A DNA stretch of 64,000 nucleotides from a virus. The stretch spans positions 183,145 to 247,144 of the IMG/VR virus record IMGVR_UViG_3300043410_001892; one strand, 5' to 3'. Shown piece by piece: positions 1 through 63,933 of this stretch. A program made the translations under genes and the position numbers. The notes beneath the pieces are model-generated. The model did no database searches, was not told the DNA's origin, and saw nothing but the letters and a program-made list of their open reading frames with translations. The first letter of the stretch is position 1, and the number at the start of each line of letters is the position of its first letter.

Positions 1-138
1 ACCTTTAAAGTCAGCCCATGCTTTTTTTACACTACCAAACACAATGTTTAGTGCCATGCCTGTTTGTAAATCAGATTGTGATACTGAGTGTTTTGCTCGT
101 GCAAACATGTTTGCTGTATCAACTATGATAAATGCCAT
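1..138 (-). CDS. Partial CDS (N-terminal ~46 aa, continues past window start) resembling RNaseH/FEN 5'-3' exonuclease
   Basis: Reverse-strand translation from ATG at 136-138 gives MAFIIVDTANMFARAKHSV..., an I-x-VD-x-x-N-x-x-x-R FEN/5'-exo N-terminal motif. GAGAGG RBS upstream. Runs off the window edge. Confidence 0.4.
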   Translation of the reverse strand, partial: MAFIIVDTANMFARAKHSVSQSDLQTGMALNIVFGSVKKAWADFKG

Positions 139-147
139 ATAACCTCT

Positions 148-594
148 CTATTTGTTAACTCTAAGGATTCCAAAGTCTTGATCAGAAATATCAATGCCTT
201 CTGCTGCTGCAGCATTGTAACAGATATCTCTATACCAACGACCAATAATTTCATCTTCTGGATCGCCATCAAAACCATAACCTTCTTGTTTTAATTTTTC
301 AATCCAATGATCATTCCAGTCAATTTCAAAAAAACCGTTTCTAACATTGTCTGGATTAACTCTAAAACCAATTACATCTACCCATGGTTCTTTTTTTAGT
401 GTTGCTTTTTCTTTTTCACTTAATTGCGGTTTTTCAGTTTTTGGTTTAGCTTTTGGTTTAGTTTTAGCTTTTGGTTTTTTAACTTTAGGCACTGGGGGAT
501 TGCTAGTTACTACTGGTAATCCCCGACTATCAATTTGATTATCGTTAGTACCAAATATTTTGTTTATTAGTTTATCAAACATTATGTTGCCCAC
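148..594 (-). CDS. Hypothetical protein with Lys/Pro-rich basic N-terminal segment
   Basis: 148-aa ORF co-directional with and overlapping the queE-like gene. KPKAKTKPKAKPK basic repeat. No recognisable catalytic motif. Confidence 0.5.
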   Translation of the reverse strand: MGNIMFDKLINKIFGTNDNQIDSRGLPVVTSNPPVPKVKKPKAKTKPKAKPKTEKPQLSEKEKATLKKEPWVDVIGFRVNPDNVRNGFFEIDWNDHWIEKLKQEGYGFDGDPEDEIIGRWYRDICYNAAAAEGIDISDQDFGILRVNK

Positions 595-1424
595 TCATTT
601 TTAAATAACGGAACTTGCAATCGATCACTGTATCGCAGTCCGTGTTTCAGTGCTAAATCTGCCACTGCTCTATTGTTTAGATTATACACAGCTTCAACCC
701 CGCCTACTGGCATCAAATATACATGCCCATTGAACCCTGCAGCTTTATATAATTCAATTTTTTCTAATGCTTCGTTTGCATCTTCTTCTGTTGCTATTAC
801 AAATTTTAGATATACGTCACTACCTGCAAACTTATATTGTACAACTGCGTCTGGAACTATAGCTTTTTCAGCAGGTTCACCGCTTACACTTAATTTTGGA
901 CTAACTGAGAACGTTACCCATCTTTTATTATTATAATATAAGTAATCTAAAAACTCTTTAGATAGTCGTTGTGTACCATTTGTTTCAAATGTAATATTTT
1001 GCACAGTTGATAATAACGGATGATCAAGTAATTGCGGATATAGTTTTTGCCATCCAAGTAATAAGGGTTCACCGCCTGTAATGACTAAGTGAATACCTTC
1101 CCAACTATTATTAGGCAGTAATTCAATCATTCTATTTGCAATTTCATCAATAGTCATAGTTGGACTAAGATGTTTAAACTTTGGATGCCAACTTGCATAG
1201 CTATCACAACCTGTAGTAACAAGTGGTAATGAATCATATGTTGGATATTGCTCACTGTTAGCAGCAATAGCATTTGCTTGGATACTTAGTTTACCTTTTT
1301 CCATACCAAATCCTGCACAAGTAAAATTGCAGCCATACGTGCGTAAGAATATTGAAGGTACACCCATAAAGCGACCTTCGCCTTGCATAGAATAAAATAA
1401 TTCTGATACTTTAATTTGTGACAT
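582..1424 (-). CDS. queE: 7-carboxy-7-deazaguanine synthase (QueE-like radical SAM)
   Basis: N-terminal FYSMQGEG...PSIFLRTYGCNFTC and ITGGEPLL motifs typical of QueE. Sits in an operon with folE. Confidence 0.75.
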   Translation of the reverse strand: MSQIKVSELFYSMQGEGRFMGVPSIFLRTYGCNFTCAGFGMEKGKLSIQANAIAANSEQYPTYDSLPLVTTGCDSYASWHPKFKHLSPTMTIDEIANRMIELLPNNSWEGIHLVITGGEPLLLGWQKLYPQLLDHPLLSTVQNITFETNGTQRLSKEFLDYLYYNNKRWVTFSVSPKLSVSGEPAEKAIVPDAVVQYKFAGSDVYLKFVIATEEDANEALEKIELYKAAGFNGHVYLMPVGGVEAVYNLNNRAVADLALKHGLRYSDRLQVPLFKNEWAT

Positions 1425-1432
1425 ATTATTCC

Positions 1433-1699
1433 TTAAACATTGTTTAATCCAATTCTAGCATATCCTAGTGCTGCTTTGAGTTCTCTACGCCCTTCACGGT
1501 TGTCTAACTCGTTCTCTAAGATAGTAAGATCATTTTGTAACTTTTGAAGATATGGCTTACCATTACGTTCCATTCTATCAGCTGGATAGTTTTTAATTCT
1601 GTCCGCATACCGTTGAATCTCATCTTTTTTGAGCTGGATTCTATGCTCAAGATTCTCTTTAGTTTTTTTCATTGTAAGCCTCTTTACGAAATTCTTCAC
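1433..1699 (-). CDS. Hypothetical protein (88 aa, charged/coiled)
   Basis: ORF packed between the queE and folE genes on the same strand. Confidence 0.45.
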   Translation of the reverse strand: MKNFVKRLTMKKTKENLEHRIQLKKDEIQRYADRIKNYPADRMERNGKPYLQKLQNDLTILENELDNREGRRELKAALGYARIGLNNV

Positions 1700-2102
1700 A
1701 ATCTTTAACAGCAGACTTTAATGCTTCTGCATAGTTGAAAGCCTGCTGTCTAGACATTATTGTTGATTGTTGATATTTAAGATAGCCATCAATCCACAAA
1801 TTCCATGTCATTTTAATACGATGATGTAATCCATTTAGAAAACTTAACCAACCATATGCAATACTACTTAAAAATGCATTTTCAATTTTATAAGTTTCTG
1901 ATAAATCAAATGGTCTATCCCAATATGCAGTTTTTTGTGTAGTAAAGGTAGTTACTGTAACGTTAAATTCATCAGCTTCTACCATAAACTCAATATTGTC
2001 ATCATCGTTACCGCACTCGCATTTAATTGCGTACATTTTACTGTTACCCCAGTCATTTGTTTGCATAATGCCTACTGCTGGAATTTGTGGTTCTAGTTTC
2101 AT
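1659..2102 (-). CDS. Hypothetical protein (147 aa)
   Basis: ORF in the deazaguanine operon with no motif recognised. Overlaps neighbours by short out-of-frame overlaps typical of phage coupling. Confidence 0.5.
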   Translation of the reverse strand: MKLEPQIPAVGIMQTNDWGNSKMYAIKCECGNDDDNIEFMVEADEFNVTVTTFTTQKTAYWDRPFDLSETYKIENAFLSSIAYGWLSFLNGLHHRIKMTWNLWIDGYLKYQQSTIMSRQQAFNYAEALKSAVKDCEEFRKEAYNEKN

Positions 2103-2110
2103 AAAGCTCC

Positions 2111-2842
2111 TTACTTGTTAACAATACTCATAAATTCTGAGCGTGTTGTTGGATCGTTTTTAAATGCACCACCAAGTTTACTTGTAACAGTAGTGCTACC
2201 TGTATCTTCAACACCTCTCGCAGCCACACAATAGTGTTTAGCATCAATTACTACTGCAATATTGTCAGTGCCTAAAATATATTCTAAAGCATGAAAAACT
2301 TGTTCTGTTAGTCTTTCTTGTACTTGTGGACGTTTTGCAAAATATTCTACAACTCTGTTTATTTTACTTAGACCAAGTACAACTTTATTTGGAATGTAAC
2401 CAACAGTAGCATAACCATCAATTACTACAAAATGATGTTCGCAATTTGATTGTACGTTGACATTGCGTTCAACAACCATTTCGTTATAACTCATTTTATT
2501 TTCAATAGTTGTACACTTTGGAAATGACGCATAATCAAGACCCCAAAATATTTCATTGACAAACATTTTTGCAACACGTTTTGGTGTGTCATTTAAACTA
2601 TCATCTGTTAAATCTAATTTTAATAGCATCATAATATCTTTGAATTTTAATTCAATCATGCTAATTTGTACATCTCTTGTTAACTCTGATAATAATACTT
2701 CTGTACCGTCAGATAACATTTGAACAGTAGAAATACCATCAACTACTGCATCATTCATAGGCGTCTCTACACCTAATTTTACTAAGTATTCGTGTACTTC
2801 TTTTCCTAATACTGGATCTATTTTTAATTTATTATAACTCAT
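2111..2842 (-). CDS. folE: GTP cyclohydrolase I (FolE)
   Basis: Conserved FolE blocks: NEMVVERNV, SNCEHHFVVIDG, SKINRVVEYFAKRPQVQERLTEQ, KHYCVAARGVEDTGSTTVTS. Confidence 0.85.
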   Translation of the reverse strand: MSYNKLKIDPVLGKEVHEYLVKLGVETPMNDAVVDGISTVQMLSDGTEVLLSELTRDVQISMIELKFKDIMMLLKLDLTDDSLNDTPKRVAKMFVNEIFWGLDYASFPKCTTIENKMSYNEMVVERNVNVQSNCEHHFVVIDGYATVGYIPNKVVLGLSKINRVVEYFAKRPQVQERLTEQVFHALEYILGTDNIAVVIDAKHYCVAARGVEDTGSTTVTSKLGGAFKNDPTTRSEFMSIVNK

Positions 2843-2865
2843 GCTGGTTCCTTATGTAAGCGTAT

Positions 2866-2894
2866 ATTATAAAGTAATGTTTATTTTTTGTCAA
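2866..2894 (-). promoter_or_regulatory. Sigma70-type early promoter (TTGACA-17-TATAAT) driving the folE-queE operon
   Basis: Reverse strand reads TTGACA aaaaataaacattactt TATAAT with an exact 17-nt spacer, 24 nt upstream of the folE ATG. Confidence 0.6.
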
Positions 2895-3032
2895 GTAATT
2901 TTAGCTCATCTTCTAAGTATTCAATGTATTCAGTTAGACCTGATATCATCTTTGAATTACCTGAACTTTGATGTTTAGCTAGATCTGATTTTACTTGATT
3001 GATTTTTTCTTTCAACTCTTCTTTAGTTAAGC

Positions 3033-3350
3033 TCATTTTAATTCCGTCCTTGCTAATTCTAAAAACATTTGATATTTTTCGTAGGCTTGTTTGACAGCTG
3101 GAACTTTTTCTCTAACAAACATATCTTCGTAATATGTTTTATTCCATTCTTCACATTTTTCAGCTTTCACTATTAACTCTTCAAAACTTCGTTGGTTTAT
3201 CTTAACAGTTAGTAGTTGCTCATATCGATAATCATTGGCACTTATATAGTGTTGATCTAAACAAACTTCCCTAATTCCATATTTTCCAAATTTTTCAACT
3301 ATATTAGACATTATTTCTTCCAAAAGTCTTCCCAGGGAAACACAATCCAA
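3033..3350 (-). CDS. Hypothetical protein (105 aa)
   Basis: ORF overlapping the end of the gpt-like gene. No motifs. Confidence 0.45.
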   Translation of the reverse strand: MDCVSLGRLLEEIMSNIVEKFGKYGIREVCLDQHYISANDYRYEQLLTVKINQRSFEELIVKAEKCEEWNKTYYEDMFVREKVPAVKQAYEKYQMFLELARTELK

Positions 3351-3805
3351 GTATCTTCTTCACGTTTGTCAATTTCTTCAACAGCAAAGTCAACTTCTAC
3401 TGTACTACCTAAATTATTAAAGATTGTAGCAAACTTAACATTTTCATGCCAAACATTATCGGCCCATCTTGGATCAGTTGGTATACAATTTGATTGCCAA
3501 TCTTGCATAATCCAGTTAAATGTTTCACCTGAATCGTTTATATCATCAACAATTAAGATATTTTCAGATTCAAATGCATCGTTAGCTAACCAACAGTTAG
3601 ATTCAGTATATACATGGTCACGTAAACTAACGTGTATTACGTACATCTTAATTCCTAAGTATTGACTTAACATATTGGCGGGTGTAACCCCGCCTCTACT
3701 AATACCAATAATATATTCTGGAGTCCAACCGCTGGCATTAATTTGACGAGCAAGTTCTAAAACTGCACCTTCAAGTTGTTGCCAAGAGTAATGTACTTTT
3801 TTCAT
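3311..3805 (-). CDS. Xanthine-guanine phosphoribosyltransferase-like (Gpt-type type I PRTase)
   Basis: Collinear with E. coli Gpt: YSWQQLEGAVLELARQI, IIGISRGGVTPANML, the PRPP-binding LIVDDINDSGETF, and C-terminal DTWIVFPWED. Confidence 0.75.
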   Translation of the reverse strand: MKKVHYSWQQLEGAVLELARQINASGWTPEYIIGISRGGVTPANMLSQYLGIKMYVIHVSLRDHVYTESNCWLANDAFESENILIVDDINDSGETFNWIMQDWQSNCIPTDPRWADNVWHENVKFATIFNNLGSTVEVDFAVEEIDKREEDTWIVFPWEDFWKK

Positions 3806-4272
3806 TCTGGTTCCTTTGGTAATAAGCTATCTGCATAGCAAACTGAGTAAACTAATTTTAGATTTTCGTATGCTTTATCTAAACCTGGGTATTCTTCACA
3901 TAGTTTTCTAAAAGCATTCCATTCTGGAAACTTATCTACAAAATCTGTTCCATAACTTGGACTAACCGGACTCCAACCTCCGCCAGTTCCGGTATACACG
4001 TAATTTGAATTATTAGTAGTATTATAAAACATTGAACCAGTGTACGATCCACTAAAGGTAGAACCAGTGTAAGGACCATTAGTGTTGTTACTAATAGTAA
4101 TAGTATCACCAGCACTCATTGACGATGATATACCATAACTACCAGTTACACTCATACCAGTTAAATAAGATGACAACGTGTCTGTTGTAAATGCTGGAAT
4201 AGAAGTTGTACTGTATAATGATTCTGGAAGTGTAATTGTATCAATTGAATTTGTCATATAATTTCTCTGCAT
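3802..4272 (-). CDS. Hypothetical S/T/G-rich protein (156 aa)
   Basis: Low-complexity Ser/Thr/Gly/Tyr-rich ORF between the glycosyltransferase-like and gpt-like genes. Confidence 0.4.
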   Translation of the reverse strand: MQRNYMTNSIDTITLPESLYSTTSIPAFTTDTLSSYLTGMSVTGSYGISSSMSAGDTITISNNTNGPYTGSTFSGSYTGSMFYNTTNNSNYVYTGTGGGWSPVSPSYGTDFVDKFPEWNAFRKLCEEYPGLDKAYENLKLVYSVCYADSLLPKEPE

Positions 4273-5374
4273 TAAAAAATGCCTTGGTTAAATAATCAGC
4301 TTGTTGCTGAATATATGTTTTCATTGAATCGTAATTTTCAATATAATCGATAATTTTGTTACATAACTCAAAACTATGATCCTCATATGCTTTAAAGTCT
4401 TCTGTCCATTCTGATGGATATTTAAAATGGAACTTATACATTTCTTTATAGCTTAATCTATCTGGTACCATAGGTATAGCATCAAGCATTACTCCTTCAT
4501 AACAGCTAATACCAAGTGTTTCTTGTAAGTTTGCACTAAACACAATCTTTGCTTCGCTTAATAATGTATGATATTCATCTTTAGTTAGTTTTTCATCTTG
4601 GCAAACTACAAAATCGTATTGTGGCATTTGCTTTGCTATTGCTCTAAATATTTCAACTTGTTTCTCTGGAGCAATACGATGTGGAAAAACAATCAAATCA
4701 CGTTTTTCTTTATTTTTAAAAGGAGCTAATGTGTCTGTTAAGTATTCCATTGGCCAGCCAGTACGTACAATACTACCATCGTCATATACTTCATCCCAGT
4801 CTTCGTCGTACCATGGATTTTCACTAGGATATCCACTATTGATAACTTTGTCAAAGAACATTTTAACATGGAATTCTGTAGCAAAGTAATTATGAGTAAA
4901 TGCAGTGTATAATGCTCGTTCGGTATGTTTAACCCAAGCATCTTTGATAGCACCTAAGAAGTCATGTTCATCGTAATTACCAGCATGCCATAGTCCATGA
5001 AATTGCCAATTAAACCCCATTAAGTCATTGATGTATTTTAATTGAAGTATTGAAGTATTCCAAGCATCTGTAAATAAGAAATGATCGTCAGGTGTTGTTT
5101 TGCCTTCAAATTGCTTTAATAAGAATGTACATAATTGTGAACTTTTCCAGTAGTTAGTATCTACAAAGTTTAAGAATGCGCCTTGTGTGACTTCTGTTGA
5201 TTGACGATAACCATCTATTTGGCAAATATTAAATTTATCATTAAGATTGTCTTGTAGTTGCTGAGGTATATGAGTATGCCATTGACCAGTATAACGTGTG
5301 TCTAAAGGTTCTACAGGAAATATCCATATTGTAGGTTTCATAATGTATTCCAAGTAATTGAAAGAAAGCCCCAA
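4241..5374 (-). CDS. Putative GT-B fold glycosyltransferase (T4 alpha-glucosyltransferase-like C-terminal half)
   Basis: C-terminal half has a GT4/GT-B-like pattern: FPHRIAPEKQVEIF...AKIVFSANLQETLGISCYEGVMLDAIPMVPD. This resembles the E...LE.G..G.IPV block of T4 agt. Confidence 0.45.
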   Translation of the reverse strand: MGLSFNYLEYIMKPTIWIFPVEPLDTRYTGQWHTHIPQQLQDNLNDKFNICQIDGYRQSTEVTQGAFLNFVDTNYWKSSQLCTFLLKQFEGKTTPDDHFLFTDAWNTSILQLKYINDLMGFNWQFHGLWHAGNYDEHDFLGAIKDAWVKHTERALYTAFTHNYFATEFHVKMFFDKVINSGYPSENPWYDEDWDEVYDDGSIVRTGWPMEYLTDTLAPFKNKEKRDLIVFPHRIAPEKQVEIFRAIAKQMPQYDFVVCQDEKLTKDEYHTLLSEAKIVFSANLQETLGISCYEGVMLDAIPMVPDRLSYKEMYKFHFKYPSEWTEDFKAYEDHSFELCNKIIDYIENYDSMKTYIQQQADYLTKAFFNAEKLYDKFN

Positions 5375-5401
5375 TTGGAGCTTTCAAGTTAAAGAGGTTG
5401 A

Positions 5402-5650
5402 TTAAGATTTTTTAAAGTTTTTTGGTCTAACGCCGTTAGGCCATGGTTTATTACCTTGATAAGGTTTACGTGGGCGTTTGCTTGCTAAATACGCACCGTA
5501 TGATTTAGTGTCCTTGCGATATAAATCTGCTGGATCAAACTTACGCATTTCAATTCTACAAAAATCATGAAATGCTTCGAGATCTTCAAAGATCTTAACA
5601 ACATCAGGACGTGATTCAAAGTATGAGAATGATTTGTAATTTTTAGCCAT
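5402..5650 (-). CDS. Hypothetical basic protein (82 aa)
   Basis: ORF with no motifs. Possible weak hairpin downstream at 5378-5400. Confidence 0.4.
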   Translation of the reverse strand: MAKNYKSFSYFESRPDVVKIFEDLEAFHDFCRIEMRKFDPADLYRKDTKSYGAYLASKRPRKPYQGNKPWPNGVRPKNFKKS

Positions 5651-5651
5651 T

Positions 5652-5861
5652 TTATTTTTTTCCGTTTCTTAATATAGTTGTATGGGTACGAAGTGAAAGT
5701 AATGTTTTTAATTCGTGCAATTCACATCTTAGTTTTGCTATTTTTGGATCGTTTTTTTTAGTATTATTGATGTAATAATATTTTTGTTCAAACAGTTTTA
5801 TCTCTTGACGCTTTTGCTCAATCTTTTTTTGTAGCATTGTTTTAGATATATAATGTTTCAT
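5652..5861 (-). CDS. Hypothetical protein (69 aa)
   Basis: Small ORF packed between neighbours. Confidence 0.35.
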   Translation of the reverse strand: MKHYISKTMLQKKIEQKRQEIKLFEQKYYYINNTKKNDPKIAKLRCELHELKTLLSLRTHTTILRNGKK

Positions 5862-6220
5862 GAATATTTAATAAATGAACCATTTTCATTATCTTCAGAT
5901 ATTTCAATCCAAATCTCTCTATCTGAATATTTCTGTGAAATAGTTTGATGTAACTCATTACTAATCATTTCACAGCTCTTATTATCTAGTGATAGTATAG
6001 CATCACTATACAATAAAGTCAACCAACGTTTAAATTGGATAAACTCAATATCTCTGTCAGCGTGTGTAACTTCAATCCAAACTTTAAAATGAAATATATG
6101 TCTATGTGGATATCCTAAGAACTCTACATCCTCTAATTTTGGATCAGTTAGAGCAGCAGGATAACAGTGTATTCCTTCTTTTGAAAATGTGACAAAAATA
6201 AATTTGCTAGTTGTTTCCAT
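5858..6220 (-). CDS. Small PTPS/T-fold-like protein (possible second QueD-like)
   Basis: 120 aa, the size of QueD. FSKEGIHCYP...LGYPHRHIFHFKV gives a His-x-His pattern reminiscent of PTPS zinc ligands. Weak. Confidence 0.3.
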   Translation of the reverse strand: METTSKFIFVTFSKEGIHCYPAALTDPKLEDVEFLGYPHRHIFHFKVWIEVTHADRDIEFIQFKRWLTLLYSDAILSLDNKSCEMISNELHQTISQKYSDREIWIEISEDNENGSFIKYS

Positions 6221-6890
6221 GTTTTTTCTTATTTTGATGTGCTAAAAGTCTAGCCTCTGACCAAGGTTTGCCTTTCTCAGGGCCGGTTTTTTTTTGTGAT
6301 TCTGCGGCTAAAATTCGTGCTTCAGACCACGGTTTACCTTTTAATGATTTACTTATTTTTTCTTTATGAATATCAGTTAACATTACACCTGTTTTTGATT
6401 TACTAATTTTTAATTTAGTTTCATTACGATGTAACTTCCCCTCCATACCTGATTTAAGAGTTCCATTTTTAATTTTAGTTTCAATAATTTTCCGTTTAGT
6501 GTCAGCTGGCAATTTTTTACCTAAATGCGATTTTGATAAGTTTTTTCGATGCTCTTCACTCTTAACTCTATTCTTCCACGATGGCGGTTTGTTATCTAAA
6601 CAAATGTTCGTTAATATGCCATTTTCTTCAAATCCAATTCTGCCGTATTTAAGAATTTCTTCAGTTTCTAATTTGTAAGCGTCGTCTTCATTAATGATAT
6701 TATCTATAACTTTTTTGATTATAGGAGGCATATTATGTTGAATTAAAAATTGTATGCGATAAAACTTATGACGATTTAACGTATTTTCTGCTGTTTCGGT
6801 TAAATGATCAAAACATCTGTTGGCTGTTCCTTTACCTATATAAAATGGTAAGTTATCTCTAGGATCTATATAATGATAAATGTAATACAT
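6207..6890 (-). CDS. Free-standing GIY-YIG homing endonuclease with NUMOD3-like repeats
   Basis: N-terminal YIYHYIDPRDNLPFYIGKGTANRCFDH matches the GIY-YIG motif. C-terminal repeated KGKPWSEAR(I/L)LA resembles NUMOD3 DNA-binding repeats, as in I-TevI/Seg enzymes. Confidence 0.85.
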   Translation of the reverse strand: MYYIYHYIDPRDNLPFYIGKGTANRCFDHLTETAENTLNRHKFYRIQFLIQHNMPPIIKKVIDNIINEDDAYKLETEEILKYGRIGFEENGILTNICLDNKPPSWKNRVKSEEHRKNLSKSHLGKKLPADTKRKIIETKIKNGTLKSGMEGKLHRNETKLKISKSKTGVMLTDIHKEKISKSLKGKPWSEARILAAESQKKTGPEKGKPWSEARLLAHQNKKKHGNN

Positions 6891-6908
6891 GGTATTCTCC
6901 TTGTAGTT

Positions 6909-6916
6909 TATTTATC
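6909..6916 (-). promoter_or_regulatory. T4-late-like promoter motif GATAAATA upstream of the homing endonuclease gene
   Basis: Reverse strand reads GATAAATAaactacAAGGAGaataccATG: motif, RBS and start in phase, 26 nt from motif to ATG. Confidence 0.45.
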
Positions 6917-6948
6917 AAACGTTACCCATATCATTTGCTGTTTCATAT

Positions 6949-7476
6949 TTAACTCTTTAATGTATCGTTGTTGTAAGCATCCCAACCTGTAAACATATTA
7001 GGATTTTGTAATGTCTGTAAACTATGTGTCCAAATACCTGGATTAGTTGCATTAAATGTAACATCATCGAGTTTAATCATAGTATTAGTATTCCATTTGT
7101 GTATATTTGCAATTGGCATTCTAATTTGTGGAATAAACTTTTCATATGAGCATAGCTCAGTTTTTACATTAAAGTCATTTAATACAGTATATGGAATATC
7201 TAATGAACAAGTTTTACCTGTTTTTAAAAAATACTCAATAGTATGAGCCCAAGACATCCATGATCCGGCATTTTGTGGATTAAAGCTATGGTTTGCACCA
7301 AAGAATATATGATCTACATCGTCTTCAAGATATATCTCAATTGCTTCTATGGTTTGAATACCTACTACAAACAGTGTTTTCATACCGTATGCAGGTGTAT
7401 GTTCTACTTCATTGCCTGTAAAAAACTTTACAGGCGTTGTAATTTCGTTTTTATATGGTCTTATCATTTTTAACAC
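6949..7476 (-). CDS. Hypothetical protein (175 aa)
   Basis: ORF between the homing-endonuclease gene and dpdA. No motifs. Confidence 0.5.
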   Translation of the reverse strand: MLKMIRPYKNEITTPVKFFTGNEVEHTPAYGMKTLFVVGIQTIEAIEIYLEDDVDHIFFGANHSFNPQNAGSWMSWAHTIEYFLKTGKTCSLDIPYTVLNDFNVKTELCSYEKFIPQIRMPIANIHKWNTNTMIKLDDVTFNATNPGIWTHSLQTLQNPNMFTGWDAYNNDTLKS

Positions 7477-9109
7477 TTTCTTCTAAGTTAGTTAATACTT
7501 CTATTTGTTTTTCGGTAAACTCTTCAGAATCAACATCATCTTCGTTATCACCGAAGTCAAAATATTTATTCAATATTGTTTGATGGTTATAAATTTTAAG
7601 TCCGGTATTTCCTCTAGTACCAGGAATTGTCATCCATAGTCTATCGTATTTTTCAATTATATCTAAAGATTCTTGTTTGTTCTTAGTTGCAAATATTGAA
7701 TCAATTAGATCACGTACAATAATTGTATCATGAACTTCTTTTATTAGCATATTTGGAAATACATTATTGTCGTATGCTTGATTTGCCTCTTGTACAGCAT
7801 TCACATGGCTCCAAACATTGTGACCCATTAAAATTGCATAACTAAAACTATCCCAACTTGTTCTACCAACTTTGTTAACTTTATTAACATCGCCAAGTGT
7901 AATCCAATACTTAGGATCATTTAAGTATTTAGGGTCTTTAAATAACGCTACATGGTCAATATTATCAGCATTGACTTCTGTCCAATTAGGAACACCTTGT
8001 TTATAAATGCAAATATCTTTAATTTCTACTTGATCAATAATTGGACTAGATTTAAATACATTAAAGATTTTATCTTGAATAACTGCATCTTTAAATAATC
8101 TAGTATCCGTTGAATATTTTTTATCATCAACGCTTGGAACCATTCGATAAACCCATTTAGATCTATCTGTTAGTTCAGTATTGATGTATACTTGTCCATT
8201 TGCTGTAGCTAAAAACGGACTAGCACAATCATAACTAATTGTAAAGTTAGGATTATGATATTTTCGTACTGCTCGTTGAATATCAGTTAGCAAACAAGCC
8301 CATTCGAGCTTGCTTGTTCCTAAAAAGTGCATCCAGTCTTGTTTTCCTTGTTCTAATAAACCGTCATGTATAATAGTAATAAGTCTTCTAAGAACTAAGG
8401 ATAAATCGCACATATTCTGACCACCCATTGCCCATCCATTAAATGCTTTATCGCCATAGATGTTAGGATCACAATATTTTTTCATACGATCATACCAATC
8501 ATTTGCATCATCGTGTGTTTCGCCTTGCAGTACATTAAGGAATTTACATTTACCAGTTCTATTTTGGATAAAGTATTCATTATTGATATCTGTACCTGCT
8601 ACTGCATCAGCATATGAGTTAACACCTGTTGCCTTACGCCCAGCCGGGCTACGTGCTACCCAAGCCGGAATATCAAGACACATGCCATAATCCATTAGCT
8701 CATCCATCCAACGCAATACTTGTTCACGTTTCTTTTGTGCTTTAGGACAATTAGGATTTTTCCAATCAGCTGGCCAGACACCTTTACCAATTTGGAATCC
8801 TCCTGAGTCGCCTAATACAAAACTTGTAGTTCTATCTCTGTTACGAAACATGTCTTCACTATCGTCAAACTTGTCTAAATCTAAGTTTGCATGTCCAGCT
8901 GAATACAAGCACCATTTATAATAAAATTGCCCTTTCTCTGGTTCCAAGTAGTTAAGACTTTCTACACCTGCAGAAAAAGATGCAGGAATTCTTGCTGGAT
9001 CTACATACTGATTATATCTCTGTTTTCCAATAAACGTAGCATAAAAGCCCGACGTTGCTGGTAGAAACACAGCGTAATCATTCTGTGTTGCTGTTAGGTT
9101 CCTGTTCAT
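7451..9109 (-). CDS. dpdA: DpdA-like DNA-guanine transglycosylase (TGT superfamily)
   Basis: VLGDSGGFQIGKG matches the TGT catalytic DSGGFQ block. 552-aa TGT-sized protein co-located with folE/queE. Confidence 0.65.
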   Translation of the reverse strand: MNRNLTATQNDYAVFLPATSGFYATFIGKQRYNQYVDPARIPASFSAGVESLNYLEPEKGQFYYKWCLYSAGHANLDLDKFDDSEDMFRNRDRTTSFVLGDSGGFQIGKGVWPADWKNPNCPKAQKKREQVLRWMDELMDYGMCLDIPAWVARSPAGRKATGVNSYADAVAGTDINNEYFIQNRTGKCKFLNVLQGETHDDANDWYDRMKKYCDPNIYGDKAFNGWAMGGQNMCDLSLVLRRLITIIHDGLLEQGKQDWMHFLGTSKLEWACLLTDIQRAVRKYHNPNFTISYDCASPFLATANGQVYINTELTDRSKWVYRMVPSVDDKKYSTDTRLFKDAVIQDKIFNVFKSSPIIDQVEIKDICIYKQGVPNWTEVNADNIDHVALFKDPKYLNDPKYWITLGDVNKVNKVGRTSWDSFSYAILMGHNVWSHVNAVQEANQAYDNNVFPNMLIKEVHDTIIVRDLIDSIFATKNKQESLDIIEKYDRLWMTIPGTRGNTGLKIYNHQTILNKYFDFGDNEDDVDSEEFTEKQIEVLTNLEESVKNDKTI

Positions 9110-9488
9110 CTTTTTCCTGTGTTAGTTTTTTAATTTCGTTTTCTAAAACTGTGATTTTGTTTTGTAATTCTTTTACAAGATAATGCTCTGTAACATTATT
9201 AGTACTTCTAGCATCAATTTGATTATTTAACCAAGTATTATAGATGTAATTTGTCGCCGGATTGCGCTGAAATTGTTCTAAGGTATAGATTTTTGACCTT
9301 ACTTCATCTATTTGCCATTTTATATTTTGAAAGTCGTTATAAAAACTCTCAAATGGTCCAAATGCGCCAGTTGTTTGATCTAAACTGGCTAATACTGCTA
9401 TTTTATTGTATGATTCTCTAATAGAATCATTATCAGAAGTATAAATTACATCTAATAGTTTTAATGCTTTTCTAAAATCAGTAATCAT
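9078..9488 (-). CDS. Hypothetical coiled-coil protein (136 aa)
   Basis: ORF overlapping the dpdA start by 32 nt. Charged C-terminus. Confidence 0.45.
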   Translation of the reverse strand: MITDFRKALKLLDVIYTSDNDSIRESYNKIAVLASLDQTTGAFGPFESFYNDFQNIKWQIDEVRSKIYTLEQFQRNPATNYIYNTWLNNQIDARSTNNVTEHYLVKELQNKITVLENEIKKLTQEKDEQEPNSNTE

Positions 9489-10225
9489 TTTGTTTGTGCA
9501 GGTAATGTATAAGTGTAAACTGAAACGCCACTTTCAACTACAATTTGAAGCATTCCCATATCTGATATTTTCATAGTAATATTGCCATCAAGATTTAAAA
9601 TACTTAATACTTGAGGAATTGACCATGCAAACGTATTTTTTAATCCAACTGGAACATTTGGTTGAAATACTAAAGAACCTGCATGTGAGTTTGCATCACC
9701 AAACTTAAATATAAGGTTGTTATTTTCTGTTGTTACTTGAAAGAACGTTTCTTCAGTATGTGCAGCAGCTTGAAACTTTAATTTTGTTATACTTGCTGAC
9801 GACGGAGTAAATTCAATGTCATATGATATCTGTACTTTATTTTTTGGTGTTTTTACTTTTTCTTCAATAATAGATCGATTCATAAATCGATAATGATTTT
9901 GAAAATCGCCTGATGCATTATTAAAGTGTAACCCAGTTGGAGTAGGTTCACCATCTCTTGCTTCTAATGTCAATGTAATAACTGCATCTTTTTTGTATTC
10001 TGGACATTTAAGATGTAGATCTAGTTTGTTTAAGTTTGGAAAACCAAATACAAACCCTTCATGTAGTCCGTATACTAGACCGTTTGTTTTACCACTCATA
10101 AGTACTGATCTATCTTCAGACTGTGATTCGACTTCAATATAGTCTGCATGGGTTGTAATTTTAGCTAAAGGTAAAAAACCTAATGAATTTGTATGTGCTA
10201 CAACGTCTTGTAAAAATGATTTCAT
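9485..10225 (-). CDS. Hypothetical protein (246 aa), possibly sliding-clamp-like
   Basis: Size and position next to the DNA polymerase are compatible with a gp45-like clamp. Similarity to T4 gp45 is not convincing by eye. Confidence 0.35.
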   Translation of the reverse strand: MKSFLQDVVAHTNSLGFLPLAKITTHADYIEVESQSEDRSVLMSGKTNGLVYGLHEGFVFGFPNLNKLDLHLKCPEYKKDAVITLTLEARDGEPTPTGLHFNNASGDFQNHYRFMNRSIIEEKVKTPKNKVQISYDIEFTPSSASITKLKFQAAAHTEETFFQVTTENNNLIFKFGDANSHAGSLVFQPNVPVGLKNTFAWSIPQVLSILNLDGNITMKISDMGMLQIVVESGVSVYTYTLPAQTK

Positions 10226-10244
10226 GTTATTCTCCTAGTGTTTT

Positions 10245-10273
10245 ATTATAATATAGTTTGTTCAGTAAGTCAA
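10245..10273 (-). promoter_or_regulatory. Sigma70-type early promoter (TTGACT-17-TATAAT)
   Basis: Reverse strand reads TTGACT tactgaacaaactatat TATAAT, followed by AGGAG and the ATG of the 9485-10225 gene. Confidence 0.55.
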
Positions 10274-10280
10274 GTTTATT

Positions 10281-12941
10281 TTAATCAAAGTCAAAAAATA
10301 AGTTAGATAAGTTTGTTTCAGAAGTTTCAATTAGTTTCCAGTTTAGTATACCAATTAAGTTGTCTAATTTATTATCAATGATAGTTTTTTCCATTTCTCT
10401 ATGATCAAATGGTAGATCTTTAAACCATTGTGGTAATCTTAGTTCATCTACCGGGTATGCAACACTTACATAACCTAATGGATTGGGTTTAAGTTTACAT
10501 ACAATTACTTTTGCACCATCAGTAATGCTCATAGAATACTTGTCACCGTTCATACGTTTTAAAGAATTCCAGTTTGCACTTGCTCTAACATGCCCAGGCA
10601 TATTAACTTTACCAATTTTTGCCTCTTTTTCAGTATATGAAGTAATGCTGTTAGCTCGTTTAGGTGATCCTTTTTCCCATCCTGGTCTTGATTTAAATAA
10701 GGTTCTAAACTCACTAATAAAGTTTAGCACAGATTGTTCTGATTCACCGTCTAGCACCTTAGTTAGTATATCAGATAAGAAGTCTTGGATAAATTCTGGA
10801 GTATCACTACGCTTTAAATCTAAACCCATAGCTTTAATTTCACCAGTTTTACCATGTGTATCCTTACGTTTACCTTCTTTGTCGTATACTAATACTGCAT
10901 ATCGCTTTTTAGTAATAAACAATGATTTACTTCCTACGATCTCACGACCAGCTTTAATTACTTCACCGCGTGTTTTAGGACAATGAAATGCATCTAACAT
11001 AAATTGTTGGAATGTATTATTCACTTGATCACTGATTTGATCATACAACTGTACAATAGTTTCTTTAGTCCATGGAATAGTTCCAGCATCAATATCTTTT
11101 TTCAATGTATTATATGCTGAAAAGTAACAAGAGTCAGTATCACCATATATAATAGCTTTGCCTAAATGATTATATTCACCTGTAATAATTTCATTTACCT
11201 TTGCAGCCATATGTTTAGCTACTTGTCTACCAGTTAGTGTAGTAGATTGACCAATACGCTTATCAAAGAATCTACAACCTGGATTAAGAATTGCACCGTA
11301 TAAACTATTTAGGTTAATCTTCTTAACTAGTTGTCGTTTATCCCAGTATTCTTCTTCAATTTTATTACCAGAAGCAATGGCTTCTTTCAGTTTCTTCTGC
11401 ATATCTTTACGTTCTGAATACCAACGTTTAAGTAGACCTGAAATAACACCTTCTTTTTCGTATGTAAATATAGTTCCATTGGCTGACATGACCCATGGTT
11501 GATTACTTTCAAACACTAGTCTATATACTTCTGCAGCACTCAATACATTACTATCGCCGTTTTCCCAGTCAACTACGATATCAGTACCTATTTCTTCATT
11601 CATTACTGAAGTATATTCAAGTGTACCAAATAATCCTTCCCATGCAGCAGCAAATGATTTACCTTTAGCTATTTGTAAGCTAATATATTCGTCAGTTGCT
11701 ATTGGTCTTAATTGTCCTACAATAGTTTCCGGACCCATATTTAATGCTCTAATAACACTAGGATATAGTGAATTGATATCAAGTGATCCAACCCAATCGT
11801 GAATACCTTCTTTTGGATATGCAACATACGCACCGGCAGCTTGAACTGCATCTTCTCTGCGTCTATTTGGAACAACAAAACCTCTATTATGTGCTTCGTT
11901 GATAATAGCTTGCTCTGTTACTGCAACTGCGCCCATGGTTGTTTGTAATAATACAGTATTTTCATGTGCAACAGTATTAGCCAAATCGATAAACTTTAGT
12001 TTTTTATCAAGACGATCTAATAGCATAGTATCTTGTCTGTTATATTCAATGAATGTTTTAAAATCATTGTTGTATAACTGATCAAGTGTACCTTCGTATT
12101 GTGTTTTTCTATCACCTAACTCGTATTCTGCAATAGCATCGAGTCTAAAACTATGTCGTTCTTCATATGTGTACTTTTGATATAGTTGTAAACTATCTAA
12201 ATGGATACGTCCAATAAGATCATATGTTACTGCAGTTTTGCCATAGCGTTCATATTCACGTCTTTTTGGAAATTGATCAAATAAACAGAATCTGCGGGTA
12301 TCATCTTTTGATAATACTTTAGTAACACGATTTACTGTATATGGAATATCAAACCCTTCGCTATTCCAACCACTTAAAATGTCAGCATCATCGATTAGTG
12401 TAAGAAACGTATCTAATAATTCTGCTTCAGTTTTAAATAAAAAAGTATTTGGGAACTCTTTTACTTGTTCAGTGGCTTCCTCCATGGTTAATGTCTTAGG
12501 AGGAATAGCTAAACAGATAAGAGTTTCCAACCATTGTAAGTGTACAGCAATTGAAGTGATTGGCATAAATGCATCATCAGGTGTTGCATAGCCACGTTCT
12601 GGGTCAAAATCAACCTCGATATCAAAAAACGCAACATTTAACTTAGGTGCGTCATGATTGAGGTAATTTTCAGATAAATGTGTGAAAATTGGATTGATAT
12701 CAGCTTCAAACGTTTTTGAATTTGCGTGTATAGAAAGTTCTTTTCTATACTCTTTTGTATTTTTACAGACAATACGTGATACTGGATCACCGTAAATTGA
12801 TTGATATCTACCTTTTGGGTCTTTATAATATAATGTGTGTTTAACAGGTGAATCTTTAAACTCTCTTTCACCTTTTTCATTTCTTTCTACAATTTTAATG
12901 ACATCGTTACTTCTATCAAAGTATGCATCTACATAACTCAT
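10281..12941 (-). CDS. Family B DNA polymerase (T4 gp43-like)
   Basis: Exo I FDIEVD, motif A DINSLYPS, KINLNSLYGA, motif C YGDTDS. N-terminus is collinear with T4 gp43 (IVERNEKGERE). Confidence 0.95.
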   Translation of the reverse strand: MSYVDAYFDRSNDVIKIVERNEKGEREFKDSPVKHTLYYKDPKGRYQSIYGDPVSRIVCKNTKEYRKELSIHANSKTFEADINPIFTHLSENYLNHDAPKLNVAFFDIEVDFDPERGYATPDDAFMPITSIAVHLQWLETLICLAIPPKTLTMEEATEQVKEFPNTFLFKTEAELLDTFLTLIDDADILSGWNSEGFDIPYTVNRVTKVLSKDDTRRFCLFDQFPKRREYERYGKTAVTYDLIGRIHLDSLQLYQKYTYEERHSFRLDAIAEYELGDRKTQYEGTLDQLYNNDFKTFIEYNRQDTMLLDRLDKKLKFIDLANTVAHENTVLLQTTMGAVAVTEQAIINEAHNRGFVVPNRRREDAVQAAGAYVAYPKEGIHDWVGSLDINSLYPSVIRALNMGPETIVGQLRPIATDEYISLQIAKGKSFAAAWEGLFGTLEYTSVMNEEIGTDIVVDWENGDSNVLSAAEVYRLVFESNQPWVMSANGTIFTYEKEGVISGLLKRWYSERKDMQKKLKEAIASGNKIEEEYWDKRQLVKKINLNSLYGAILNPGCRFFDKRIGQSTTLTGRQVAKHMAAKVNEIITGEYNHLGKAIIYGDTDSCYFSAYNTLKKDIDAGTIPWTKETIVQLYDQISDQVNNTFQQFMLDAFHCPKTRGEVIKAGREIVGSKSLFITKKRYAVLVYDKEGKRKDTHGKTGEIKAMGLDLKRSDTPEFIQDFLSDILTKVLDGESEQSVLNFISEFRTLFKSRPGWEKGSPKRANSITSYTEKEAKIGKVNMPGHVRASANWNSLKRMNGDKYSMSITDGAKVIVCKLKPNPLGYVSVAYPVDELRLPQWFKDLPFDHREMEKTIIDNKLDNLIGILNWKLIETSETNLSNLFFDFD

Positions 12942-22154: not shown

Positions 22155-22760
22155 CTAATTAAGAATCCTATCGATTGATAACTTAATATTGCCTAAATGT
22201 AATTTAACAAATAAAAGAGTGTGTTCTCCTTTAACATATAATTGTGAGCCAGCATCATATCTATTTGGTTTTACAGATAACAACCGTTCAGTTTTTGGTT
22301 GAAGTTTAATTTTGTCATTGTTGTTAGACCATTCTATAAACTCAGGATTAAGATTAGCTACTCCACCGAGCGTAACTCTAAAATCATATGGAGTATTTGG
22401 CATGTATACCATTCCTCGTTCTAATCCATCTGGTGGAATACCAATTGAATCAACAAACCTTGGTATTAAATCTCGAATAGCAGTAATATCATTGTAATTG
22501 TTAGTATAGATAATTAACGTTGGTAAATTAACTCTTGTTGCAAAGTTTTCCATATTCATTATATGTTCATATAGAAGAGTAGTTGCGTTATAATGATCTG
22601 GATAACGAATACTATCTATTTTAGAAACCATCTTAAGTCGTTTAGCATATTTAGACTTGTCATGTCCTTTAAAGATATCGCCATTGGCGAGAGTCAATAC
22701 GATATTGTATTGAAACTCGCCTTTGTACAATTTCTTAACAGTGGTAAACTTAATTGTCAT
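22155..22760 (-). CDS. Hypothetical protein (201 aa)
   Basis: ATGA-coupled to the upstream clpA-like gene. Confidence 0.5.
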   Translation of the reverse strand: MTIKFTTVKKLYKGEFQYNIVLTLANGDIFKGHDKSKYAKRLKMVSKIDSIRYPDHYNATTLLYEHIMNMENFATRVNLPTLIIYTNNYNDITAIRDLIPRFVDSIGIPPDGLERGMVYMPNTPYDFRVTLGGVANLNPEFIEWSNNNDKIKLQPKTERLLSVKPNRYDAGSQLYVKGEHTLLFVKLHLGNIKLSIDRILN

Positions 22761-25070: not shown

Positions 25071-25099
25071 ATTATAAAGTATTTTAATTATAAAGTCAA
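25071..25099 (-). promoter_or_regulatory. Sigma70-type early promoter (TTGACT-17-TATAAT) upstream of the clpA-like gene
   Basis: Reverse strand reads TTGACT ttataattaaaatactt TATAAT, 34 nt upstream of the ATG. Confidence 0.55.
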
Positions 25100-25947
25100 A
25101 TAATTTGACTGTTTATTTGTTGCAATTGTGCCACCAATTCTGGTTTGGTAACTGCAGGGGTTTTTATTTTTACAACAGTAACAAATCTTCCAATCTGTCT
25201 ATTGTGTAAATTAGTAAACCCGCCGTGCGCTTTTGCATATTCTGTACCAGGTTGTACTCCTGGTTTAATAGTAATGTTATGTTTTTCACCTATTAAGTTG
25301 GTAACTTCTTTAACACAACCAATCATTGCTTCAATTGGTGAAATTTCAATTGAAGTAAATATGTCATTACCTTCGCGTCTAAAATTAGGATCAGGTATTA
25401 CATTTATAGTTACATTTAAATTACCACGTGGAACACCCGGCTGTGAGTTATCTCCTAAGCCGTCATATCTAATAGTATCTCCGTTATCAATACCTGCAGG
25501 TACGTTAATTACAACATGCTGTGGTTCTCCGCTAGGCAAGTTAATATTAGCATCTATTTGTTTTCCTTTAAATGTATCTGCTAATGTGACTTGAATTTGT
25601 AAATTTAAATCTCGGTTACGGCGACCTTGTTGGAATCCATGTGCAAAGTGTTGTCCAAAAATATCATGCATATTAAACTGGAAGCCTCCACCGAAACTGT
25701 TACTAAATGGTCCTCCTCCACCAAATCCACCAAATCCACCAAATGGATTTCCATTTTGTTGCATATCATATTCTTGGCGTTTTTGTGGATCACTTAATGT
25801 ATCATATGCTACTGAAATATCTTTAAATGTAGCTTGGTCTCCACCTTTGTCGGGATGATGTTTATTTGCTAATGAACGATATGCTTTTTTAATATCGTCT
25901 TGTGATGCATCTTTTGATACACCTAATTTTGAATAAAAGTCTGTCAT
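25096..25947 (-). CDS. DnaJ-like J-domain co-chaperone
   Basis: N-terminal J-domain YSKLGVSKDASQDDIKKAYRSLANKHHPDK with the HPD motif, followed by a Gly/Phe-rich linker (GGFGGFGGGGPF). No CxxCxGxG zinc finger seen. Confidence 0.8.
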   Translation of the reverse strand: MTDFYSKLGVSKDASQDDIKKAYRSLANKHHPDKGGDQATFKDISVAYDTLSDPQKRQEYDMQQNGNPFGGFGGFGGGGPFSNSFGGGFQFNMHDIFGQHFAHGFQQGRRNRDLNLQIQVTLADTFKGKQIDANINLPSGEPQHVVINVPAGIDNGDTIRYDGLGDNSQPGVPRGNLNVTINVIPDPNFRREGNDIFTSIEISPIEAMIGCVKEVTNLIGEKHNITIKPGVQPGTEYAKAHGGFTNLHNRQIGRFVTVVKIKTPAVTKPELVAQLQQINSQII

Positions 25948-30167: not shown

Positions 30168-30899
30168 ATGGGACACAAACGAGTACAAAAACGTTTTACA
30201 TCACACGTCAACATAGTAGAATTTCAACAACCAAAACAAATTAAACCTAAACGCTACAGTGTATCTTTAAATCCTCGCAACCAAAGTCAAAAAGAGTATG
30301 TTGCGATGTTACAAGATGAATCTACTAGTATTGTTTTTGCAATTGGTCCGGCTGGAACAGGGAAAACGATGTTAGCTGTGCAACAAGGTATTAAATTGTT
30401 TCAAGAGGGAGTTATAGATAAAATTATTGTGACGAGACCGGCAGTGTCGGTAGATGAAGAATTGGGATTCTTACCAGGAACTTTAAATGAAAAGATGGCT
30501 CCTTGGACAAGACCTATTTTTGATGTATTCGGAGAGTATTACCATCAGACAGATATTGCAAAGTTTTTGGCTGAAGGTGAGATTGAGATTAGCCCACTAA
30601 GCTATATGAGAGGTAGGACATTTAAGAATGCTTATATCATTTTTGATGAGGCGCAGAATACAACGCCAAATCAAATGAAAATGGCTCTTACCCGCTTAGG
30701 AGAAAATTCGAGAATGGTTGTAACAGGGGATTTAGCACAAGCTGATCGCTTGCATGACAATGGATTATTAGAATTTATTGATAGATTAGACAATAATAAG
30801 ACAGCGTTAAGCCATATTGATGTTGCGTATTTTACGCATAAAGATATTGAACGTCATAGTGCAGTTAAGGAGGTATTAGCACTCTACGGGGAAAGTTAG
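30168..30899 (+). CDS. phoH: PhoH-like ATPase
   Basis: Walker A IGPAGTGKTMLAV, PhoH blocks IVTRPAVSVDEELGFLPG and IIFDEAQN. AGGAG RBS. Confidence 0.9.
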   Translation: MGHKRVQKRFTSHVNIVEFQQPKQIKPKRYSVSLNPRNQSQKEYVAMLQDESTSIVFAIGPAGTGKTMLAVQQGIKLFQEGVIDKIIVTRPAVSVDEELGFLPGTLNEKMAPWTRPIFDVFGEYYHQTDIAKFLAEGEIEISPLSYMRGRTFKNAYIIFDEAQNTTPNQMKMALTRLGENSRMVVTGDLAQADRLHDNGLLEFIDRLDNNKTALSHIDVAYFTHKDIERHSAVKEVLALYGES

Positions 30900-30941: not shown

Positions 30942-31140
30942 GTTTTAGCATAAAAAGAAAAAACTTTTGTTCATCAAATACCTTGTAACTTTCAATTTTA
31001 CGATTGTTAAAATCAAAGTACACTTCGACACCATAGGTTTCTTTAAGCCAATTCCAAAAGATGTTTGGAAATCCTAGCTCTTTCCATTCTATAGTTGCTT
31101 TATTATGAGCATCCTGTAATATATCAAGATCAATTGTCAT
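30931..31140 (-). CDS. Hypothetical protein (69 aa)
   Basis: Small ORF ATGA-coupled to the dCMP deaminase gene. Confidence 0.4.
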   Translation of the reverse strand: MTIDLDILQDAHNKATIEWKELGFPNIFWNWLKETYGVEVYFDFNNRKIESYKVFDEQKFFLFMLKHSS

Positions 31141-63904: not shown

Positions 63905-63933
63905 ATACACTCCTGTTTAATTAAAAAAAATAT

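Follow-up and report, generated by a model that had tools for sequence, protein, structure and literature searches.

The 64,000-nucleotide stretch of viral DNA analysed here (IMG/VR record IMGVR_UViG_3300043410_001892, positions 183,145 to 247,144; hereafter the window) contains a real 7-deazaguanine DNA-modification cluster of the kind described in 2023. FolE, QueE, QueD and an open reading frame (ORF) resembling tRNA guanine transglycosylase (TGT) had been recognized from the sequence alone as such a cluster (the original prediction). Pfam, NCBIfam and PHROG matches and the DSGGFQ motif confirm these genes at their positions, and the gene set, the gene context and the catalytic Asp residues support the cluster as a whole. 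Our analysis adds a large unannotated clade of transglycosylases, 7-deazaguanine (dDG) instead of its carboxy form (dCDG) as the base predicted in the DNA, and two conserved accessory genes. We consider it fairly probable that the cluster encodes a QueC-less, DpdL-type pathway to dDG, in which guanine in DNA is exchanged after replication by an enzyme of the DpdA clade and a phosphoribosyltransferase (PRTase) recycles the guanine.

The only family that the small ORF of 120 amino acids (aa) in the cluster matches is an unannotated PHROG. Its sequence FLGYPHRHIF corresponds to the motif LxxxHRHxF (L35-GYP-H39-R-H41-I-F43). DpdL, a paralogue of QueD, is defined by this motif, which replaces the CxxxHGH of QueD (Cui et al. 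2023, PMC10516641). In an alignment of seven DpdL proteins, H18, H39, H41, H53, E59, E84 and E109 are invariant, and tblastn of the window protein found the DpdL of ACP17 (55% identity, E 1e-34), PA5oct (49%) and phiST (CGPG_00067; 31%, E 5e-5). By its sequence, the ORF is DpdL, a predicted decarboxylase of 7-carboxy-7-deazaguanine (CDG). DpdL has been proposed to convert CDG to 7-deazaguanine and has been reported specifically among phages with DpdA, FolE, QueD and QueE that lack QueC (PMC10516641). The same combination, with a DpdA-like protein, holds within the 64 kb of the window, on a contig of at least 372 kb.

As the original prediction stated, no QueC is seen in the window: the SGGxDS motif occurs in none of its six frames, and tblastn of the window with three phage QueC proteins, two QueF proteins, a Gat and DpdN gave nothing below E 0.2. 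A tblastn of QueC across all phages listed 347 records. The original prediction went on to argue that the pathway without QueC stops at CDG and that the transglycosylase inserts CDG to give dCDG. This step is not supported, because DpdL is present and conserved in the cluster and because phiST, which has FolE, QueD, QueE and DpdL and no QueC, replaces all dG by dDG with dCDG undetected by liquid chromatography-mass spectrometry (LC-MS) (PMC10516641). phiST is the one DpdL phage whose base has been analysed by LC-MS (PMC10516641). The DpdA2 of VH7D can insert CDG, though very inefficiently, when the host is an E. coli queC mutant, and 0.04% of G is dCDG in Sulfolobus virus STSV-2; however, STSV-2, the one virus with dCDG as its reported base, has a different gene set, DpdA with ArcS. 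We consider insertion of CDG improbable even with QueC missing from the window. Since DpdL is present and phiST has dDG without dCDG, dDG is the best prediction, and the base in the phage DNA is probably 7-deazaguanine rather than the carboxy form.

The ORF resembling TGT encodes a 552-aa protein, with DSGGFQ encoded at 8792-8809. It had no match in Pfam, NCBIfam, PHROGs or PDB sequences, and phmmer and two profile searches of its family against PDB sequences gave spurious matches only. More than 7,400 homologues exist at the 90% clustering level; at the 50% level there are 931 representatives, 616 of them with E ≤1e-10. An identical protein is found on a 372-kb JGI contig and relatives on contigs of 200-390 kb, which points to a jumbo-phage lineage. 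The only cultured phages with homologues are the PA5oct-like Pseudomonas jumbo phages (37% identity), Sinorhizobium phage Phosso and Vibrio phage 2.275.O, and every one of these homologues is annotated as 'hypothetical'. In Phosso, a small 'DnaE-like' ORF lies near the transglycosylase gene copy.

The family alignment comprises 58 diverse members of 26-58% identity, in which seven columns are invariant: D101, S102, G104, D146, P148, H261 and D294. The catalytic Asp residues on which the original prediction hung, D101, D146 and D294, are thus all conserved, and they stand in register with those of DpdA2. The general acid/base motif D101-S-G-G-F105-Q aligns with DSGGLQ of DpdA2, D146 and P148 (LDIP) with the invariant FDEIP, HFLG with HLLG, and D294, which follows the HxLG strand (ISYDCASP, ISYDC in the shared part), with the invariant D263 (ISYDSTTH, ISYDS). 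In Salmonella DpdA, Asp95 is the general acid/base, Phe99 stacks, Asp130 recognizes the base and Asp256 is the nucleophile, and Ala substitution of the general acid/base or the nucleophile Asp abolishes guanine exchange (PMC10164549). From the motif order, D146 may be the equivalent of the base-recognizing Asp130. The modelled protein has the (beta/alpha)8 TIM barrel of the TGT type, and its best structural match is bacterial DpdA (Salmonella Montevideo, PDB 7UI4)/TGT. Foldseek against viral models gave eight hits at E ≤1e-3, including nt-1 DpdA2 (R9TGF0; E 3.5e-6) and a phage 'tRNA guanine transglycosylase'. It is very likely that the 552-aa family is a DNA transglycosylase.

Within DpdA, hhalign of the 58-member profile with a six-member DpdA2 profile gave 97.7% and E 2.4e-12 over 203 columns. 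The match is significant with deeper profiles only; a shallow alignment against single sequences gave 0.2% for ACP17 and 4.5% for phiST. The family hidden Markov model (HMM) found DpdA2 of Moby, ACP17 and pf16 at E ~1e-5, the reverse DpdA2 HMM gave the window protein E 15, and tblastn between the window protein and DpdA2 found no match in either direction. With no BLAST link and a one-way HMM match, the protein was not accepted as a member of DpdA2 and reads best as a sister clade. Assignment to DpdA3 was also rejected: hhalign gave 44% and E 2e-4, far weaker than for DpdA2, and DpdA3 has LDNG/LDNS, not DSGGFQ. The 552-aa protein would represent a new deep DpdA clade nearest DpdA2, of which Cui et al. 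2023 may already list the PA5oct-type proteins within one of their DpdA subgroups.

That the genes merely boost host queuosine or folate, with the TGT-like protein acting on tRNA or not being a transglycosylase at all and the DNA unmodified, seems very improbable. Such tRNA-queuosine boosting has been proposed in the literature for some phages that have preQ0 genes without a recognized DpdA. In the window, however, the product implied by DpdL without QueC is no precursor of queuosine, and the closest profile match of the 552-aa protein is the DNA-acting DpdA2, not a tRNA TGT. The DNA of PA5oct, a phage with the same module, resists restriction, and the cluster lies between DNA polymerase/clamp-like genes and, in PA5oct and the closest relative, RNase H.

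The 552-aa family occurs in 7-deazaguanine clusters in four independent settings: the window, its closest relative (L013, the 375-kb ENA contig ERZ4225947 NODE_6), PA5oct and Vibrio phage 2.275.O. In the latter (L005:9905-17000) its neighbours are QueF, a YhhQ-like transporter gene, QueC, a Gat amidotransferase gene (Ntn amidohydrolase-like) and FolE. Comparison of 2.275.O with the DpdL-type clusters ties the family to pathways with different end products, and the clade probably also includes preQ1- or preQ0-inserting enzymes. ORF 469 of 2.275.O, which follows the family member, was considered as a counterpart of the glycosyltransferase (GT)-like gene of the window, whose fold is of the GT4 type (GT4-like), and is not a GT4-like protein.

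Several points weigh against the proposed dDG pathway. The function of the 552-aa family is a prediction. Pfam TGT (PF01702) hit neither the window protein nor any of the 58 members, and the family HMM hit no PDB chain. The accepted DpdA3 proteins of phiST and immuto likewise gave no hmmscan hit, and at E ≤10 in Pfam the window protein, three cultured-phage homologues, the DpdA2 of ACP17 and two DpdA3 proteins were all without TGT. The AlphaFold2 model is of moderate confidence, and its segment 82-105, which bears DSGGFQ, has pLDDT <50. No Cys is invariant in the 58-member alignment, so the canonical zinc site of TGT and DpdA is not conserved; since the DpdA2 alignment also has no invariant Cys, this site is not universal across phage DpdA clades. 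QueD is encoded on the other strand, ~30 kb away from the cluster, and because the window covers only 64 kb and the contig is 372 kb or longer, QueC could lie elsewhere. The decarboxylase activity of DpdL is a prediction that has never been reconstituted in the literature, and co-expression of DpdL and DpdA from phiST or ACP17 in E. coli produced no dDG (PMC10516641). Finally, the published dDG scheme gives no role to the GT4-like and PRTase genes, so a different final base or another way of incorporating it is possible.

The genes for the first steps of the pathway are identified. FolE gave E 1.6e-59 with Pfam GTP_cyclohydroI and 305 bits with NCBIfam FolE (cutoff 202). QueD gave E 1.7e-28 with Pfam PTPS (99.5 bits, cutoff 22.4) and has the CxxxHGH motif as CKHLHGH. 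QueE matched PHROG 2076 'QueE-like radical SAM' at E 7.7e-54. Since its scores against the NCBIfam QueE equivalogs are below the cutoffs (52 vs 200 bits), it is regarded as a divergent phage QueE; its radical-SAM Cys residues C32, C36 and C73 do not vary among nine phage QueE proteins. The Cys spacing is C-x3-C-x36-C, owing to an insertion of ~36 aa ahead of the third Cys (residues 32-73). This insertion is common to PA5oct, X1, Moby and BUCT-ZZ01, whereas ACP17, phiST and immuto have the compact spacing.

The FolE of the window is only 36% identical to that of L013 (L013:15028-15720) and 55-59% identical to those of ACP17, BUCT-ZZ01 and nt-1, whereas the genes around it are 48-68% identical to L013. 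The far lower similarity of FolE than of its neighbours suggests xenologue replacement of FolE.

The gene identities, the fold, the conserved catalytic residues, the synteny and the co-occurrence patterns observed here lead us to the following scheme; in it, the substrate, the chemistry assigned to DpdL, how much G is replaced and what the PRTase and the GT4-like protein do are proposals. GTP would be converted to CDG by FolE, QueD and QueE, enzymes identified here whose chemistry is established for their families. DpdL, by the activity predicted in the literature, would strip the carboxyl group from CDG to give the free base 7-deazaguanine. The 552-aa enzyme may then excise guanine from DNA through a covalent Asp294-deoxyribose intermediate, with Asp101 as the general acid/base and Asp146 as the base reader, and insert 7-deazaguanine to give dDG, as its fold, motif register and gene context suggest. 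The PRTase would return the guanine to GMP and then GTP, feeding FolE. The GT4-like protein and the 175-aa ORF are conserved partners to which the scheme assigns no step. DNA made in this way should resist restriction enzymes with G in their recognition sites.

The PRTase matched Pfam Pribosyltran at E 3.6e-15 and NCBIfam xanthine PRTase at E 1.8e-16, the latter under the cutoff; it is a type-I purine PRTase closest to the xanthine/guanine PRTases. Homologues are present in only 31 of 50,697 phage records, in the PA5oct-like, phiST-like and Campylobacter CP21-like lineages, Flavobacterium phage immuto, Synechococcus phage BUCT-ZZ01 and two Brevundimonas phages, and also in two unannotated gut-phage records. 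These lineages carry 7-deazaguanine genes wherever the locus was inspected or the literature reports on them, and for three of them replacement of 100% of G has been reported: phiST-like (dDG), immuto (fdPreQ1) and CP21-like (dADG). The PRTase gene is directly beside FolE or QueE in five lineages (PA5oct, immuto, CP21, BUCT-ZZ01 and MaInes). A literature search on a role of PRTases or glycosyltransferases in 7-deazaguanine DNA found nothing relevant, and 'phosphoribosyl' is absent from the text of both key papers. We infer that the PRTase most likely salvages guanine, either released from the DNA or scavenged from the host, to GMP and then to GTP, the substrate of FolE.

In Brevundimonas phage vB_BpoS-MaInes (L015:6313-7468), the PRTase gene comes right after FolE and adjoins genes for ribonucleotide reductase (RNR) and deoxynucleoside monophosphate (dNMP) kinase; within the 14 kb examined, the annotation shows no further 7-deazaguanine gene. 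This nucleotide-metabolism setting fits a nucleotide-level role of the PRTase.

The same distribution could reflect a pre-replicative route. The PRTase would use phosphoribosyl pyrophosphate to make a 7-deazaguanine (or CDG) nucleotide, kinases and RNR would convert it to dDGTP, and the family-B polymerase would incorporate it; the TGT-like enzyme would then be auxiliary, for instance in proofreading or in repairing residual G, or would have another substrate. PRTases turn 7-deazapurine bases into nucleotides in toyocamycin and tubercidin biosynthesis. In this direction point also the rarity of the PRTase subfamily together with the complete G replacement in three of its lineages, its place beside FolE or QueE, the RNR and dNMP kinase of MaInes, and the ADG nucleoside that the literature reports in the cytoplasm of CP220-infected cells. 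However, every such cluster conserves a TGT-fold enzyme whose catalytic triad is intact, workers in the field argue that insertion takes place after replication, and salvage of guanine explains the PRTase equally well. No dGTP-specific hydrolase was identified, and the MazG-like gene lies 55 kb away. We consider the pre-replicative route unlikely. The MazG-like protein is a possible helper of the pathway that could clear canonical dGTP; in phiST, a MazG-like gene is next to DpdL. In the window, this gene adjoins an ATP-dependent DNA ligase gene at 62546-63910(-).

The GT4-like protein has a GT-B fold of two Rossmann domains with a C-terminal nucleotide-sugar site, and its structural neighbours include pterin glucosyltransferase and T4 DNA alpha-glucosyltransferase. 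Its gene adjoins DpdL in the window, L013, PA5oct, ACP17, Phosso and X1 and is a few kb apart from it in BCSR5. In the phage collection, it was found in 22 records, almost all of them DpdL phages. The start of the gene is probably the ATG near 5341. The 175-aa ORF gave no family hit in the domain and profile libraries; it is 51% identical to the L013 ORF in the same position and 30% identical to an ORF directly upstream of DpdA2 in ACP17.

Since the GT4-like gene keeps company almost only with DpdL, and its product has the fold of enzymes that use nucleotide sugars and act on pterin or T4 DNA, it may, possibly with the 175-aa ORF, decorate 7-deazaguanine or an intermediate, for example by glycosylation, and yield an undescribed hypermodified base. 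Also in favour, phiST, the only DpdL phage with a measured base (dDG), lacks the gene at the locus examined and is not among the phage-wide tblastn hits. We consider a decorated base rather unlikely. A broader proposal is that in DpdL phages, among them this lineage, PA5oct, ACP17 and Phosso, both the GT4-like protein and the PRTase are obligatory, and that the product is a 7-deazapurine nucleotide incorporated by the polymerase or a further decorated base. Although this would explain why reconstitution with DpdL and DpdA failed, it is a tentative proposal that we doubt, and plain dDG made by guanine exchange is still preferred.

From 148 to 12941, every ORF is on the minus strand (Table 1), as the original prediction had described for the cluster; the block ends with the clamp-like gene and the family-B DNA polymerase. 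The G+C content of the sequence is ~0.31-0.34, and megablast of positions 1-9500 against the 50,697 phage records found no matches. In L013, the order is polymerase, clamp-like gene, TGT-like gene, 175-aa ORF, DpdL, 82-aa ORF, GT-like gene, PRTase, 51-aa ORF, FolE and QueE, with RNase H further along from QueE. In PA5oct, the polymerase is followed by the TGT-like gene, GT-like gene, DpdL, PRTase and QueE.

Table 1. Coordinates of the features discussed, in positions of the window
Feature	Position	Strand	Basis or remark
QueE, 7-carboxy-7-deazaguanine synthase	582-1424	-	PHROG 2076 and three-Cys motif
Small ORF	1433-1699	-	Not conserved in closest relative L013
Small ORF	1659-2102	-	Frame differs from 1433-1699; not conserved in L013
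FolE, GTP cyclohydrolase I, first pathway step	2111-2842	-	Pfam and NCBIfam equivalog
Sigma-70 promoter-like site	2866-2894	-	TTGACA-17-TATAAT, 12/12, consensus match alone; 5' of FolE
Conserved 51-aa ORF upstream of FolE	2881-3036	-	55% identical L013 counterpart between PRTase and FolE
Gpt-like (xanthine/guanine-type) purine PRTase	3311-3805	-	Pfam Pribosyltran
GT-B/GT4-fold glycosyltransferase-like protein, conserved DpdL partner	4241-5374	-	Fold
Conserved 82-aa ORF between DpdL and GT-like gene	5402-5650	-	61% identical, same L013 position
Small ORF	5652-5861	-	One of three ORFs in 5402-6220
DpdL, QueD-like T-fold protein, 120 aa	5858-6220	-	LxxxHRHxF motif and tblastn
GIY-YIG/NUMOD3 homing endonuclease	6207-6890	-	Pfam LEM-3_GIY-YIG and NUMOD3
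Conserved 175-aa ORF, overlapping and directly downstream of transglycosylase gene	6949-7476	-	Synteny
552-aa TGT-fold protein, predicted DNA guanine/7-deazaguanine transglycosylase	7451-9109	-	DSGGFQ, profiles, fold
Clamp-like gene	9485-10225	-	End of block
Family-B DNA polymerase	10281-12941	-	End of block
QueD, 6-carboxy-tetrahydropterin synthase	38867-39409	+	Pfam PTPS, CxxxHGH
MazG/PRA-PH-like NTP pyrophosphohydrolase	61774-62274	-	Pfam PRA-PH 6.9e-14

The pathway genes named in the original prediction are confirmed, but its list omitted DpdL, the PRTase, the GT-like gene and the homing endonuclease. It had also put forward four regions as possible accessory proteins. The one at 6949-7476 is conserved, whereas 1433-2102 and 9078-9488 are not conserved in the nearest relative; moreover, 1433-2102 is not one ORF but two in different frames, and 5402-6220, also taken as one, consists of three ORFs, the last of which is DpdL. 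The conserved 82-aa ORF in this region had no match in the family search. The homing endonuclease gene, which sits between the 175-aa ORF and DpdL and is absent from that position in L013, is a mobile element and not a pathway gene. The block had further been described as driven by early promoters, for which support is weak. A perfect consensus does lie 5' of FolE, and an 11/12 match is found at 10273-10245(-), but the 76 promoter-like sites in total are no excess over shuffled sequence (67.5 ± 8.1).

Between FolE and QueE, L013 has a gene for a 599-aa B12-binding radical-SAM protein (L013:15734-17533), and the window has the two small non-conserved ORFs there. The radical-SAM gene could indicate that C7 is modified differently in that relative, for example by methylation.

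Other genes of the window include a chaperone set: a ClpB-like double-AAA ATPase (22757-25036), a full DnaJ (25096-25947) and a Cpn10/GroES-like protein (33688-34071). PhoH (30168-30899(+)), dCMP deaminase (31137-31568(-)) and an SPFH/Band-7 protein (31568-32419(-)) are auxiliary genes typical of large marine and freshwater myoviruses. There are two giant ORFs of 4,041 aa (40195-52320(+)) and 1,788 aa (54386-59752(+)), and the sole match of a 169-aa ORF at 34455-34964(-) is to a fragment of the NTPase domain of DNA polymerase III alpha; the 'DnaE-like' ORF of Phosso is of comparably small size.

Modification of DNA with 7-deazaguanine is a major counter-defence of phages, and DpdA is treated as its signature gene. 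Because Pfam, NCBIfam and PHROGs do not detect a family that comprises ~930 clusters at 50% identity, surveys are expected to under-count 7-deazaguanine phages, especially the jumbo phages abundant in metagenomes. The GT4-like gene and the PRTase are candidates for the 'unknown enzymes' behind the failed reconstitution of dDG synthesis, and the accessory genes make the question of complete dDG replacement directly testable. Whether the base is dDG or dCDG has a bearing on sequencing, on restriction and on how defence systems target the DNA.

Among known systems, the dDG system of phiST (FolE, QueD, QueE, DpdL, DpdA3; PMC10516641) is likewise QueC-less with DpdL. At another place in its genome, phiST also has a Gpt-like PRTase that belongs to the same subfamily, and it has a MazG-like gene and the dDG outcome predicted here. 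However, its transglycosylase is a 259-aa DpdA3 with LDNG instead of DSGGFQ, and the GT4-like gene and the 175-aa ORF were not found at the phiST locus examined. The cluster of ACP17 (Acidovorax) consists of QueD, FolE, an ORF, DpdA2, the GT-like gene, DpdL and QueE, is next to replication genes and has the same module architecture, with homologues of the 175-aa ORF, the GT4-like protein (33%), DpdL (55%) and FolE (56%). It differs in its 424-aa DpdA2 (ASD50403, in the syntenic position), which is linked by BLAST to the DpdA2 of nt-1 and VH7D and from which the window protein is not detectable by BLAST, and in that no PRTase is seen at the locus examined.

The DpdA2 proteins of Vibrio phages nt-1 (YP_008125322, the type member of the subfamily) and VH7D have been shown experimentally to insert preQ0/preQ1 into DNA. 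They resemble the window protein in fold, motif order and the lack of a conserved Cys cluster for zinc, whereas the window protein has ~200 extra C-terminal residues and no BLAST-level similarity to them. According to the literature, DpdA2 modifies <0.1% of G; the substrate in the window is presumably 7-deazaguanine. Salmonella DpdA and tRNA TGT have the DSGGF general acid, the base-reading Asp and the nucleophile Asp in the same order, but identity is 9-12%, the window protein has no PF01702 hit and no conserved zinc site, and no partner ATPase of the DpdB type was seen.

A further similar system is found in PA5oct (Wroclawvirus), in which EST35_0316 to EST35_0322 are homologues in the same order after the DNA polymerase: the 552-aa protein (37%), the GT-like protein (43%), DpdL (49%), the PRTase (32%) and QueE (31%), with the clamp-like gene shared too. 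All these genes except QueE are annotated as 'hypothetical' in PA5oct, and the host and the G+C content differ. The genes named in a 2025 preprint on PA5oct are QueE and a PTPS-like gene alone, without a transglycosylase (PMC12191111). PA5oct DNA resists restriction enzymes acting at G-containing sites, and the authors suspected modified G (PMC12191111). In this therapeutic phage, whose G modification is known from restriction resistance alone, EST35_0316 is a candidate for the missing transglycosylase.

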